A stretch of DNA of 10,316 nt from an uncultured archaeon (lineage in GTDB: Archaea > Aenigmatarchaeota > Aenigmatarchaeia > GW2011-AR5). Positions 192-2,838 of the stretch are shown in pieces (within the stretch, counting starts at the first letter, position 1; every line of letters begins with the position of its first letter). The translations under genes were made by a program, and so were the position numbers. Under the pieces are notes generated by a model. The model made no database searches, had not been told where the DNA came from, and was given only the letters and a program-made list of their open reading frames with translations. The stretch covers positions 1 to 10,316 of the forward strand of contig CAYJVT010000027.1 of NCBI GenBank assembly GCA_964373695.1, written 5' to 3'.

Positions 192-438
192 ATGCTGCGA
201 ATTCTTAGATGACTATCTGCAGAAAACGAAGTTTTCTGAGATTCTCAAAAACCTTCGGTTTTTTGCAGAATTTGGCGTCATGAAAAACAGAAACAGATGA
301 TTGAAGAGTATGGGCGGCTAGCGAAATAAGCAAAAACGCTCTGCGTTTGGTTTGTTTCATATGCTAGCAACGGTTTGACTCTGATGTTTCGAAATTTCAT
401 GCAAGCAGCACGATGATTTGTTTTCGCAGCACGTGAAA
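192..438 (+). other. 247-nt ORF-less BHB-type intron in 16S rRNA (after ~1363, h43 loop)
   Basis: Inner stem TGCTGCGA 193-200/TCGCAGCA 424-431; central helix TCAT 186-189/GTGA 433-436 with one extra C432 (relaxed BHB); bulges CAA and AAT; h43 stem as outer helix. Splicing gives GCGAAGGTCATCA|TCTTTCGCTGAAT. Confidence 0.9.
216..269 (+). repeat. Hairpin family A, inverted doublet inside the 16S intron
   Basis: TCTGCAGAAAAC-GAA-GTTTTCTGAGA (216-241), then T, then the reverse complement of TCTGCAAAAAACC-GAA-GGTTTTTGAGA (243-269). Confidence 0.8.
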
Positions 439-555
439 TCTTTCGCTGAATACGTCCCTGCTCCTTGCACACACCGCCCGTCAAGCCATCCGAATGAGGT
501 TTTGGTGAGGTCTGTGATGAGCAGCTCGAACCAAATCTTTGTAAGGAGGGCTAAG

Positions 556-586
556 AGATTAACGGCTGCGGCCGTTTTTCGAGCAA
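556..586 (+). other. 31-nt BHB intron in the 16S decoding region (between ~G1494 and U1495)
   Basis: Interrupts CTAAG|TCGTAACAAGG. Central helix GCTA 550-553/GAGC 581-584 (one A.G mismatch); bulges AGA and AAT; inner hairpin GATTAACGGC-TGCG-GCCGTTTTTC. Confidence 0.9.
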
Positions 587-651
587 TCGTAACAAGGTAG
601 CCGTACGGGAACGTGCGGCTGGATCACCTCCTATATTTTTTCAACTCAAAG

Positions 652-679
652 GATTGGCGCATTTCATGCGCCGGTCTGC
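652..679 (+). repeat. Hairpin family B copy, just downstream of 16S
   Basis: GATT-GGCGCAT-TTC-ATGCGCC-GGTCTGC; aligns to 8523-8550 with compensatory stem changes. Confidence 0.7.
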
Positions 680-804
680 AAGGTTGGAAAAATCATCGAC
701 TTCGTGTGCCGTCAGTTACCTTACTGACGTCCTGATAGGTGCCAAATTGCGGAAGCCGAGGCTTCCGTCCGCTCAAGCGGCTCGCGCTTTCCATTCTGAT
801 ATTT

Positions 805-1980
805 ATGGATTTCAACAAGGCGTCTTTAGACGCCCACAGGGAAAAGAAGGGCAAGATAGAAATAGTGCCGAAGATGCGCGCCACCGACAGGGAATCTCTT
901 TCTATTGCCTACACTCCAGGAGTTGCCGCGGTCAGCAGGGCGATAGCGGCCGACAGGAAGGCTGTCTGGGACTATACGATAAAGCAGAACACGATAGCGG
1001 TCGTCACCGACGGCTCTGCAGTGCTCGGCTTAGGAAACGTAGGAGCAGAGGCCGCGCTGCCTGTGATGGAAGGAAAATGCATGATTTTCAAGGAAATGGC
1101 GGGCGTGGACGCGTTTCCAATATGCCTGGCGACGCAGGACGCCGGCGAGATAATATCCATCGTCAGGAACATGGCGCCGACATTCGGAGGCATAAACCTG
1201 GAGGACATAGCGGCGCCGAAGTGCTTCGAGATAGAGGCGGCCCTGCAGGACCTTGGCATACCAGTGATGCATGACGACCAGCACGCCACCTCAATAGTGA
1301 TACAGGCCGCGCTGCAGAACGCTGCCGGCATTGTCGGAAAGAGGATAGAGGAGCTGAAAGTCGTCATAAACGGCGCCGGAGCGGCCGGCATATCGACTGC
1401 ACGCATGCTCAAATGCATAAACATTGACAACAGCGTCTGCACATCGGTTGCGGACATAATAGTTTGCGACAGCAAAGGCACACTCCACAAAGGCAGGAAT
1501 GGCATGAACGTATACAAGCAGGATATCGCCAGGTATACGAACAGGAATATAGTGAAGGGCGGTCTAGCCGAAGCAGTGAAGGATGCAGACGTCTTCATAG
1601 GACTTTCGGCCGCCGGAGCGCTTACCAAGGAGATGGTGAAGAGTATGGCGGACGGGCCGATAATATTCGCGATGGCCAACCCCGTGCCGGAGATAATGCC
1701 ACAGGATGCGCTGGACGCCGGAGCTGCCATAGTCGGTACAGGCCGGAGCGACTTCCCGAACCAGATAAACAATGTGCTCGCTTTTCCCGGTATCTTCAGA
1801 GGGGCGCTCGACGCCAAGGCGACCAGGATAACGGAAGAAATGAAGATAGCGGCGGCTCACGCTCTTGCGAGAGCCGTGAAGCCTGCCAAAGACAAGATAC
1901 TGCCGCATGCGACCGACAAAGGGTATGTGAAGGATATAGCGGATGCGGTCATGAAGGCCGCGACAGATGTAAGAGATTAA
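805..1980 (+). CDS. mae: NAD(P)-dependent malic enzyme (short, unfused type), 391 aa
   Basis: Motifs AYTPGVA, VVTDGSAVLGLG, MEGK, INLEDI, HDDQH, INGAGAAG (Rossmann), FAMANP, TGRSDFPNQINN. Start placed at ATG 805 rather than GTG 739 because the 22-aa extension lies in hairpin-rich spacer. Confidence 0.96.
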   Translation: MDFNKASLDAHREKKGKIEIVPKMRATDRESLSIAYTPGVAAVSRAIAADRKAVWDYTIKQNTIAVVTDGSAVLGLGNVGAEAALPVMEGKCMIFKEMAGVDAFPICLATQDAGEIISIVRNMAPTFGGINLEDIAAPKCFEIEAALQDLGIPVMHDDQHATSIVIQAALQNAAGIVGKRIEELKVVINGAGAAGISTARMLKCINIDNSVCTSVADIIVCDSKGTLHKGRNGMNVYKQDIARYTNRNIVKGGLAEAVKDADVFIGLSAAGALTKEMVKSMADGPIIFAMANPVPEIMPQDALDAGAAIVGTGRSDFPNQINNVLAFPGIFRGALDAKATRITEEMKIAAAHALARAVKPAKDKILPHATDKGYVKDIADAVMKAATDVRD

Positions 1981-2051
1981 AATATTCAACCAAAATAATT
2001 ACAGTGATTTGAATGAATAGGGGTTCGAGAGATTTTTTTGAGGTGGTCAAA

Positions 2052-2438
2052 ATGAAAACATTGAGACAGACAGTGATTTTCAAGGCAAGTCCAAAGATCG
2101 TATACAATATGCTGATGGACTCCAAGAAGCACTCGGCATTCACCGGCGCGCCGGCGAAGATAAGCAAAAGAGTTGGCGGCAAAATCATCGCCTATGACGG
2201 CTACGTAGAAGGCAAGAATCTGGAGCTGAAAGATGGCAAGAAAATAGTCCAGAAATGGCGCGGCTCCGAATGGCCAAAGGGGCATTTCTCAACCGCGACC
2301 TTTGTTCTCGAGAAATCCGGCAGCGGAACAAAACTTATCTTTATCCAAGAAGGCGTTCCGGAAGACAGCTATGCCATGATAAGCAAAGGCTGGAAGGAAC
2401 ATTACTGGGACAAGATGAAGAAAATTCTTGAGAAATGA
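2052..2438 (+). CDS. SRPBCC/AHSA1 (activator of Hsp90 ATPase homolog 1-like) domain protein, 128 aa
   Basis: Pattern ASPKIVYNML.D...HSAFTG...VGG...YDG..G..LEL..GKKIVQKWR..EW...ST.TF.LE..G.GTKL...QEGVP......GW..HYW. SD GAGGTGG at 2040-2046 supports ATG 2052. Confidence 0.9.
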   Translation: MKTLRQTVIFKASPKIVYNMLMDSKKHSAFTGAPAKISKRVGGKIIAYDGYVEGKNLELKDGKKIVQKWRGSEWPKGHFSTATFVLEKSGSGTKLIFIQEGVPEDSYAMISKGWKEHYWDKMKKILEK

Positions 2439-2452
2439 CGATTTTTGACGAA

Positions 2453-2459
2453 TTTAAAT
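2453..2459 (+). promoter_or_regulatory. Putative TATA box for tRNA-Ala
   Basis: TTTAAAT 25-31 nt upstream of the tRNA 5' end, in AT-rich context. Confidence 0.5.
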
Positions 2460-2520
2460 CATTAAAAAATAATTTCTCACTACGGGCCGATAGATCAATT
2501 GGAAGATCGCTTGCTTTGCA

Positions 2521-2615
2521 CGAACTTTTTGGAAAAATCTGCAAAGAACGAAAGTTCTTTGAGATATTGAAGGAACTGGTTCCTTCAAAGAAGTTCGACC
2601 AAAAATTTCCGAACT
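2521..2615 (+). other. 95-nt BHB intron of tRNA-Ala, canonical position 37/38
   Basis: Central helix TTTG 2515-2518/CGAA 2610-2613; bulges CAC 2519-2521 and CTA 2614-2616; inner stem GAA.TTTTTGG/CCAAAAA.TTC. Confidence 0.95.
2538..2591 (+). repeat. Hairpin family A copy plus degenerate inverted partner in the tRNA intron
   Basis: TCTGCAAAGAAC-GAAA-GTTCTTTGAGA (2538-2564), then the hairpin TTGAAGGAAC-TG-GTTCCTTCAA (2567-2588) with a similar AAGGAAC/GTTCCTT stem. Confidence 0.7.
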
Positions 2616-2658
2616 AGCAAGAGGCTGGGGGTTCGAGTCCCCCTCGGTCCACCTAACC

Positions 2659-2666
2659 TTTATAAG
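2659..2666 (+). promoter_or_regulatory. Putative TATA box driving 23S pre-rRNA
   Basis: TTTATAAG immediately after the tRNA, followed by an AT-rich proximal element; implies a start near 2690. Confidence 0.6.
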
Positions 2667-2811
2667 CTTTTTTGTATCTATTCTATAATAGCTGTTCGTG
2701 GGGTCAGAAATCCCGCAGGTTCTTTACTCAGCATGAAAGTGCTGTTAGGCAGGAATTACAGGCTGTTCAGAGTCGGCAATGTATCGTGAGAGAATGCGTT
2801 GCTTGTGGCAA

Positions 2812-2838
2812 TCTGCAAAAAACGAAGCTTTTTGCAGA
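2812..2838 (+). repeat. Hairpin family A copy in the 23S leader
   Basis: TCTGCAAAAAAC-GAA-GCTTTTTGCAGA. Confidence 0.75.

Follow-up and report, generated by a model that had tools for sequence, protein, structure and literature searches.

The stretch of DNA analysed here (the window; 10,316 nucleotides, 10.3 kb) belongs to the 1.02 Mb genome of an uncultured archaeon of the DPANN phylum Aenigmatarchaeota, termed G000 in this text, and carries genes for 16S rRNA, tRNA-Ala(UGC) and 23S rRNA. Both the 16S and the tRNA gene are interrupted by predicted BHB introns, and these introns, together with the spacer that precedes 23S, harbour four copies of a short hairpin that we call family A. Copies 3 and 4 stand downstream of copies 1 and 2, as follows (R1 denotes the covariance model described below):

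192–438, plus strand: predicted relaxed BHB intron in the loop of 16S helix 43 (h43), host of the inverted doublet; pairing read from the sequence
216–241, plus strand: family-A copy 1, left half of the inverted doublet; pattern match, 43.5 bits with R1
243–269, minus strand: family-A copy 2, inverted; 33.8 bits with R1 on the minus strand
2521–2615: tRNA-Ala(UGC) intron; tRNA assigned by Rfam, BHB read from the sequence
2523–2596, plus strand: composite element (closing stem, hp1, hp2) that forms the body of the tRNA-Ala intron; delimited by alignment
2538–2564, plus strand: family-A copy 3, which is hp1 of a two-hairpin module; 33.8 bits with R1
2567–2588, plus strand: companion hairpin hp2, with arms TTGAAGGAA and TTCCTTCAA on either side of a loop
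2812–2838, no strand assigned: family-A copy 4; 28.2 bits with R1 on the plus strand and 24.8 bits on the minus strand

The Rfam alignment places a 249-nt insert at the 16S h43 loop. Its predicted BHB comprises an exon helix (179–185/440–446), a 4-bp helix (186–189/433–436), bulges at 190–192 and 437–439, one extra unpaired C and an intron helix (193–201/423–431), and splicing would leave the loop UCAUCAU. Copies 1 and 2 constitute a doublet of 54 nt. Its two halves may alternatively pair with each other to give a single long hairpin, and they do so in the MFE structure predicted for the intron. The tRNA-Ala gene with its intron was missed by ARAGORN and found by Rfam; its BHB has a 4-bp helix (2515–2518/2610–2613) and bulges at 2519–2521 and 2614–2616. 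Copy 4 is situated in the tRNA–23S spacer, ~170 nt upstream of the 23S processing stem, which is formed by 3007–3031 with 9131–9156 in a windowed fold.

The R1 model (26 positions, 11 pairs) recovers exactly four family-A copies in the window, with the next match below 10 bits, and thus confirms the coordinates given in the first-pass annotation of this DNA at scores of 28.2–43.5 bits. The pattern TCTGCA-N12-17-TGMGA is matched three times in the window, against 0.06 matches expected from 200 shuffles. A family-A unit is 26–28 nt in size and consists of TCT, a bulged G, CA followed by purines, a 3-nt loop, pyrimidines followed by TG, and AGA. Copy 1 is built from TCT, the bulged G, an 8-bp stem, a GAA loop and AGA; copy 4 is a perfect 27-nt palindrome (TCTGCA...TGCAGA) from which the bulge is absent. 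Units stand singly, as an abutting inverted doublet (216–269) or in a module with the second conserved hairpin (2538–2588).

Compensatory variation of the stems, which had been suggested from the copies in the window, is borne out in 45 distinct copies from five genomes: 9 of the 11 pairs are altered on both sides, a value reached by none of 500 shuffles. Of the cells in these stems, 99.6% pair, and G-U pairs occur in 3 of 494 cells, a scarcity that is partly biased because the copies were picked with the covariance model. The foot TCT(G)...AGA is present in 37 of the 45 copies, and the tetranucleotide foot GTAG/CGTC is absent. Loops are AAA (10 copies), GAA (9), AGA (4), TTT (4) and GGA (3), so that the GAA-type loop originally described does occur but is not fixed, AAA being commoner. 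Identical stems bear flipped loops (GAA/TTC, AAA/TTT). Perfect hairpins of at least 8 bp number 302 in the G000 genome and 81 in a shuffle of it. Searches of Rfam 15 with seven module loci returned chance-level matches only (E up to 5), and the neighbourhood of the copy at C3:17020 (contig and position in G000) had no Rfam match. Hammerhead, K-turn, box C/D and attC identities for the hairpin were considered and rejected, as their defining motifs are absent from the sequence.

A covariance-model scan of the genome and its relatives, as the first-pass annotation had proposed, found 54 family-A loci in G000 and matches in 31 of 41 relatives. Occurrence is patchy even inside one family: relatives of similar genome size have between 0 and 122 hairpins, and five family members, two of them >90% complete, have no match. 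Hairpin-rich genomes include G000, G001, G002, G005, G006, G016, G017, G020 and G026; those devoid of the hairpin include G008, G011, G015, G030–G032 and G037. In a phylum-wide sample, matches were obtained in 10 of 121 genomes, namely G000 itself, six genomes of family f1 and three others; almost none was found across the ~110 other genomes of the phylum, and G095, outside family f1, has a near-perfect copy. Such patchy occurrence fits a mobile element and not a conserved host function. Abutting plus/minus doublets recur, with seven in G005 alone and others in G000, G002, G014, G020 and G021, in agreement with the initial description of a dispersed REP-like family with inverted doublets; look-alikes of doublet length are present in G001, G002, G014 and G020. 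Modules are also found in a D-loop tRNA intron of G017 and in a tRNA intron and a 23S insert of G005, and copies inside introns have both orientations. In G000, 14 of the 30 best copies are no further than 150 nt from a gene 3′ end, without sense or antisense bias (~7 each). The statement that no copy was noticed in coding sequence does not extend to the rest of the genome, where the copy at C7:24542 supplies a gene's stop codon and the insertion at C19:10047 rewrites a C-terminus. Many contig ends of G000 are hairpin mosaics.

Comparison between close relatives reveals both gain and loss. The 54-nt doublet is missing from the 16S intron of G001, a member of the same genus: block 208–269 is absent from this orthologous intron, which bears a module elsewhere. 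Across relatives the h43 site holds an insert of 0 to ~247 nt, and a family-A hairpin is found within it only in G000 and G001, at different places. The 16S intron is older than its hairpin insertions. The comparison of orthologous introns advocated at the outset has thus yielded filled and empty states, and the idea that introns serve as a safe haven for the hairpin fits, since the introns predate the insertions and the h43 intron, at ~54–247 nt, is found across the family. At C19:10047, a clean 56-nt insertion of hp1 and hp2, present in G000 only, lies between two genes; an AT stands at either end of it, and the surrounding DNA is 82% identical. This is the one insertion with sharply defined ends, so that neither a target rule nor a target-site duplication is claimed. 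Neither G001 nor G002 has the hairpin mosaic of ~190 nt at C3:24539–24730, and in G001 the hairpins at C3:17020 have each lost one arm through decay. Copy 4 is not polarisable, because the 23S leader downstream of tRNA-Ala shows no similarity between G000 and G001 or G002. Sites that are filled in one congener and cleanly empty in another show family A to behave as mobile DNA.

The pair of hp1 and hp2 in the tRNA-Ala intron also occurs at C7:24542, C3:32766, C3:17020, C16:11087 and C19:10047, and in G001, G005 and G017. The second hairpin is a distinct conserved type and not a decayed family-A copy; what had been taken for the decayed partner of a doublet is this separate hp2, kept across many loci and genera. 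The composite element is collinear over ~75–80 nt with three copies in G005, which is of another genus and where the element appears to lie between genes. The introns at the same position in G001, G002 and G014 are wholly different in sequence, and the family-A hairpin is absent from those of G001 and G014.

We consider it probable that family A is the core hairpin of lineage-specific, miniature, non-autonomous palindromic DNA repeats, an archaeal counterpart of REP/BIME/REPIN elements. It is copied, inverted, nested and deleted as blocks of ~26, 54 and 56 nt or as mosaics of 80–190 nt, and its copies occupy low-harm DNA: spacers, those of rRNA operons included, the ends of genes, and distal portions of BHB introns that are not essential and are removed from the RNA. 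Near-total Watson–Crick pairing, scarce G-U and the lack of strand bias point to a palindromic mini-element at the level of DNA. The element would accordingly act as DNA, and its recognition feature may be a hairpin or cruciform with a conserved 3–4-bp foot and one extrahelical base. Template switching within the palindromes could maintain arm complementarity and flip the loops. The IS200-type TnpA of G000 would move a different, related mosaic element, with family-A hairpins at times as passengers.

A stricter version, in which a Y1 HUH transposase, either a RAYT or the IS200-type TnpA encoded on contig C52, would act on hairpins and doublets as single-stranded DNA, excising and re-inserting them at the replication fork, is improbable in our judgement. 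G000 does encode one intact Y1_Tnp (C52:1357–1749) besides one fragment. It also holds at least nine copies of a TnpA-linked, non-autonomous derivative that combines the IS200 right-end hairpin with TCATTGAC and whose left end starts with TCTGCAGA and closes with TCTGAGA, the bulged foot of family A. IS200/IS605 TnpA recognises hairpins with a bulged stem base, and this resemblance was counted in favour of the stricter version, as were the family-A copies that directly adjoin the IS200 right-end hairpin at C22:120 and C28:8405. However, the sole Y1 protein is of the IS200/IS605 type, scoring 97 bits with NF033573 and 19.2 bits with the RAYT model NF047646, for which the cut-off is 80. Its end hairpins (CCACCG.../CCATCAGCC...) are unlike family A, and the IS200 subterminal hairpins are borne by a separate mosaic element that ends CCACCGTC...GACGGTGG-TCATTGAC; moreover, the right-end hairpin is limited to 6 of 41 genomes. 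Y1_Tnp (PF01797) has no match in six hairpin-rich relatives (G001, G002, G005, G006, G014 and G020, with 28–89 hairpin matches each; G005 is 90% complete in 2 contigs and G014 97% complete), whereas G023, G010 and G018, which have an intact Y1 gene, contain only 3–6 hairpin matches. Copy orientation along a 918-kb contig of G005 likewise lacks the pattern of a replichore-type strand switch. With an IS200-type enzyme as the only Y1 protein and six hairpin-rich relatives devoid of Y1_Tnp matches, the mobilisation by HUH or RAYT transposases envisaged in the first-pass annotation is not upheld. Among other candidates, the Rep-Arvir nickase (PF25227) gave nothing above the cut-off in 41 genomes, and the TnpB/Cas12f-like domain (PF07282) was found in only two genes, both in the CRISPR locus on C11. 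Repeats of at least 600 nt in G000 were examined as possible transposases and set aside, as their translated N-termini resemble ordinary cellular paralogues. No transposase among those searched tracks the distribution of family A.

Next in rank, and similarly unlikely, is a host-functional RNA hairpin: a 3′-end element (terminator, block to 3′-exonucleases or processing signal) recognised via its foot, with dispersal as a secondary matter. A functional 3′-end element would likewise place 14 of 30 copies near gene 3′ ends, and about half of the best copies do follow a stop codon or the 3′ end of a tRNA at a distance of no more than 150 nt. T residues abound in the 3′ arm, and four of five gene-proximal copies in a small sample (G005, G017 and G006) are in sense orientation, but orientation in G000 is unbiased. 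Copies of either orientation also occur within the precursors of rRNA and tRNA, in which termination would do damage, and they are followed by T/A and a second hairpin, not by the T-run of an intrinsic terminator. The near absence of G-U pairs, the range of 0–122 copies among relatives, the virtual absence from the rest of the phylum and the lack of an Rfam family match all argue in the same direction. Cross-genus conservation of the foot (TCTG-CA...TG-AGA) nevertheless speaks for this alternative, and a host protein that binds the foot in RNA or DNA could also account for it.

The least probable alternative is that the composite inserts into RNA genes and brings or completes a splice-competent BHB, so that introns are gained or replaced. 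A full copy of the composite, which is also present at other loci in G005, makes up the body of the tRNA-Ala intron, the same-position introns of three relatives are unrelated in sequence, and modules occur in the RNA genes of G017 and G005 named above; in addition, the summary of Fujishima et al. (2010) given in PMC4090602 has DNA-level transposition of tRNA BHB introns proposed for Thermoproteales, by a mechanism stated to be unknown. Yet the BHBs of both window introns are predicted to form from exon and the introns' own terminal stretches, the hairpins (with a single 1-nt bulge) are not BHB motifs, the 16S intron precedes its hairpin insertions, the majority of copies lie outside RNA genes and no pair of an intron-less gene and an element-only intron was found in relatives. 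The early suggestion that the hairpin may seed new BHB introns likewise seems unlikely.

A palindromic DNA repeat of REP-like organisation therefore remains our preferred reading of family A. A bolder extension, for which we see some but rather little chance, is a mini-element that spreads without a recognisable transposase, by an unknown enzyme or a purely replication-based template switch, and supplies and replaces the bodies of BHB introns, as the physical vehicle of archaeal tRNA and rRNA intron turnover. Gain and replacement of archaeal intron sequences have been inferred, and to our knowledge their mechanism has never been explained. Family-A copies come to lie in the excised part of tRNA and rRNA introns, or in one case make it up, and thereby offer datable examples of both processes. 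Textbooks treat REP-type mini-elements as a bacterial phenomenon that goes with RAYT transposases; in the literature, we found no description of an archaeal counterpart. An archaeal family with bulged hairpins, doublets and mosaics but minus the enzyme prompts one to ask by what means elements of this kind move. There are practical consequences as well, as the repeats break DPANN genome assemblies and affect annotation by changing gene 3′ ends and stop codons.

Family A has much in common with REP/BIME/REPIN elements: imperfect palindromes of 20–40 nt whose copies number from tens to hundreds, stems that vary with compensation while the foot is conserved, doublets of alternating orientation and mosaics, location mostly after genes, and largely vertical, lineage-specific inheritance (PMC3116915, PMC2817692, PMC3733652). 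It differs in its archaeal (DPANN) host, in stems that are A/T-rich where theirs are G/C-rich, in a foot TCTG...AGA in place of their GTAG or CGTC tag, in that a RAYT gene was not found in most carriers, and in copies that sit in rRNA and tRNA introns and on stop codons. With IS200/IS605 and PATE-type derivatives, the G000 genome shares a TnpA with subterminal hairpins and a multi-copy derivative whose outer stem has the family-A foot, whereas family A is free of the TnpA end hairpins and abundant in genomes that lack both enzyme and ends. Rickettsia palindromic elements and organellar palindromic repeats are also small palindromes that invade spacers and non-essential parts of RNA and protein genes with no identified transposase; they are much longer (RPE) or belong to other lineages, and their sequences are unrelated to family A. 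Finally, as far as the summary in PMC4090602 describes them, the transposed BHB introns of Thermoproteales also comprise near-identical blocks in introns of unrelated RNA genes, with spread at the DNA level inferred; the family-A block differs in being a hairpin module that contains no splice motif of its own and occurs in either orientation, outside RNA genes as well as within them.

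Family A is a real and well-delimited archaeal family of REP/BIME/REPIN-like repeats. A covariance model of it, R1, was built from six 26-nt genomic copies and matches exactly the four window sites claimed in the first-pass annotation, with everything else scoring at most 10 bits.

Family-A copies in the window, with R1 scores
216-241, copy 1, 43.5 bits
243-269, minus strand, copy 2, 33.8 bits
2538-2564, copy 3, 33.8 bits
2812-2838, copy 4, 28.2 bits

A simple pattern search of the window returned 3 matches, against 0.06 expected by chance. The unit opens with TCT and a single extrahelical base, which is G in 35 of the 45 distinct copies; an 8-9-bp stem with a 5′ arm of C-A-purines, a loop (3 nt in most copies) and the complementary arm follow, and AGA closes it. 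The compensatory variation first proposed for the stems holds in this set of 45, drawn from five genomes: 99.6% of cells are paired and 9 of 11 pairs are altered on both sides, a level of pairing and covariation that none of the shuffled and slid controls attain. The GAA loop, also singled out initially, does occur but is not specific, as AAA is equally common and pyrimidine loops are found on identical stems.

The source genome, G000, comprises 1.02 Mb in 60 contigs, of which the window is the entire contig C27 (10,316 bp). It holds 54 distinct family-A loci at E < 0.001, of which 30 score at least 26 bits, and 302 perfect hairpins of at least 8 bp, half with 3-nt loops, versus 81 in a shuffle. 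Family A takes four forms: alone, as an abutting inverted doublet (216-269 in the window, and seven in G005, a relative from another genus), as a two-hairpin module, and within larger mosaics, which often terminate contigs. In the module, family A (hp1) is joined by a second conserved hairpin (hp2), for example at 2567-2588. The latter had been read as a decayed partner of copy 3; its conservation in modules identifies it instead as a different hairpin type. The tRNA-Ala intron body (2523-2596) is collinear with composite elements, consisting of closing stem, hp1 and hp2, at three G005 loci, and this one intron body is built wholly from the element.

Other repeats were also observed. A ~100-nt two-hairpin repeat of a different family lies at 9160-9270, immediately 3′ of the 23S processing stem, and has ~25 partial or full genome matches (best 94-98% identity), several at contig ends. 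A separate conserved hairpin, ACCCACGAC, a 4-nt loop and GTCGTGGGT, is shared across genera (G000 C1:1791, C3:21205, C4:19936, C5:35519, C15:6611 and C41:3334; L053 in G005) and is similar to an IS200/IS605-type end hairpin. The block CCCTTTT-[C/G]-AAAAAAGCGC-[T/C]-GGCGGAAAA is common to several tRNA introns (G000 C5:56777-56886 and C30:6857-6987; L055 in G005); its sharing, and the hairpin nested within it at L055, suggest a second intron-associated repeat family.

The copies lie among the following genes.

Gene content of the contig
1-634, 16S gene, 3′ end
739-1980, malic-enzyme gene
2013-2438, AHSA1/SRPBCC gene
2484-2651, tRNA-Ala(UGC)
3037-9031, 23S gene, carrying inserts (~3 kb)
3920-4669, 6630-7124 and 7823-8392, LAGLIDADG-type protein ORFs in three 23S inserts

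The 23S gene is roughly double the length of its model; an ORF within it (5715-6077) has no Pfam match, and the R1 scan of the window found no family-A hairpin in the 23S inserts. The rRNA cluster is interrupted between 16S and tRNA-Ala by the malic-enzyme and AHSA1/SRPBCC genes (739-2438), the SRPBCC gene being absent from the corresponding place in the congener G001.

Copies 1 and 2 occupy an insert in the helix 43 loop of 16S. As read from the sequence, its junction comprises an exon helix (179-185/440-446), a 4-bp helix (186-189/433-436), 3-nt bulges at 190-192 and 437-439, and a 9-bp intron helix (193-201/423-431) with one extra unpaired C, which makes it a relaxed bulge-helix-bulge. Predicted splicing by cuts within the bulges would excise 192-438 and leave the loop UCAUCAU, which we take to resemble an ordinary archaeal helix-43 loop. 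The intron in tRNA-Ala spans 2521-2615 at the canonical 37/38 position, and its bulge-helix-bulge is made from the anticodon loop and the last 6 nt of the intron. In each of the two introns the hairpins are located distally and contribute nothing to the splice motif. The tRNA-23S spacer holds copy 4, which precedes the 23S processing stem by ~170 nt. Of the suggestion that introns offer a safe haven, what stands is that the intron copies are best read as insertions tolerated in excised RNA.

Mobility was assessed in five comparisons with the same-genus genomes G001 and G002. Orthologous introns do differ in the element: block 208-269 is missing from the 16S intron of G001; at the position corresponding to 324-357, that intron carries an hp2+hp1 module in reversed orientation. 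At C19:10047, a 56-nt hp1+hp2 block with AT flanks on either side lies within otherwise well-aligned sequence, where it takes the place of one gene's final codons and provides a new stop codon. A ~190-nt hairpin mosaic (C3:24539-24730), ending in an IS200-type end hairpin, is missing from both congeners. The C3:17020 module is ancestral, and its G001 counterpart has decayed, each hairpin having lost one arm. Finally, a ~335-nt segment between two conserved genes (C7:24270-24640; L042:9270-9640) is found only in G000; it comprises an ORF of 78 codons, on visual inspection a putative glyoxalase/VOC fragment, and a family-A module providing the stop codon of this ORF. The helix-43 intron itself is older; its ends are conserved around an interior of ~54-247 nt in many family members, it is missing in six genomes from other families, and of the nine relatives checked, G001 alone contains family A within this intron.

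Two further differences from G001 were noted. A second, 54-nt 16S insert (97-150), within the loop of a hairpin that precedes helix 43, also looks polymorphic, since the homologous stretch is ~51 nt shorter. In the G001 tRNA-Ala (L004:1514-1720), the 3′ half of the gene and the intron end are duplicated in tandem (~50 nt), which could be real or an assembly artefact.

Movement by an HUH transposase, as originally envisaged, fails across relatives. No Y1_Tnp (PF01797) match was found in six hairpin-rich genomes, including one in 2 contigs and one 97% complete; hairpins are scarce in genomes whose Y1 genes are intact, and the IS200 end hairpin is present in only 6 of 41 genomes. As alternative movers, neither Rep-Arvir nor TnpB fills the gap. 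G000 encodes a single intact Y1 transposase (C52:1357-1749) alongside a fragment; the intact enzyme was rejected as a RAYT, being of IS200/IS605 type. Its locus (L001, C52:1200-1780) is a single-gene IS200-type element with subterminal hairpins, imperfect on the left and perfect on the right. A non-autonomous mosaic with at least nine copies in G000 has ends modelled on this element, a variable, nested hairpin content, a right boundary of TCATTGAC and a left boundary following AAA. Its outer stem bears the family-A foot and some family-A copies adjoin it; family A can therefore hitch-hike with the mosaic in G000.

The dispersal proposed for family A extends to relatives, with matches in 31 of 41 (0-122 each). 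The richest are G017 (122), G001 (89), G026 (81), G016 (76), G006 (72), G020 (71), G002 (61) and G005 (57); R1 has zero matches in G008, G011, G013, G015 and G024, all of the same family. A phylum-wide scan, which doubles as a negative control for R1, gave matches at E up to 1e-6 in 10 of 121 genomes. Besides G000, six of the nine positives belong to family f1, and one near-perfect copy was found in a distant family.

Four features favour a palindrome acting at the DNA level over a strand-specific RNA signal: hardly any cells hold a G-U pair (3 of 494, with the caveat that the copies counted had been chosen using the model), copies close to gene ends in G000 show no sense/antisense bias, introns contain the element in either orientation, and loops are inverted on identical stems. 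The REP/RAYT work found in the literature concerns bacteria only. Intron 'transposition' was found only as an unexplained inference for Thermoproteales (Fujishima et al. 2010, as summarised in PMC4090602). About half of the best G000 copies are found no more than 150 nt from the 3′ end of a gene, a placement also seen in REP elements.
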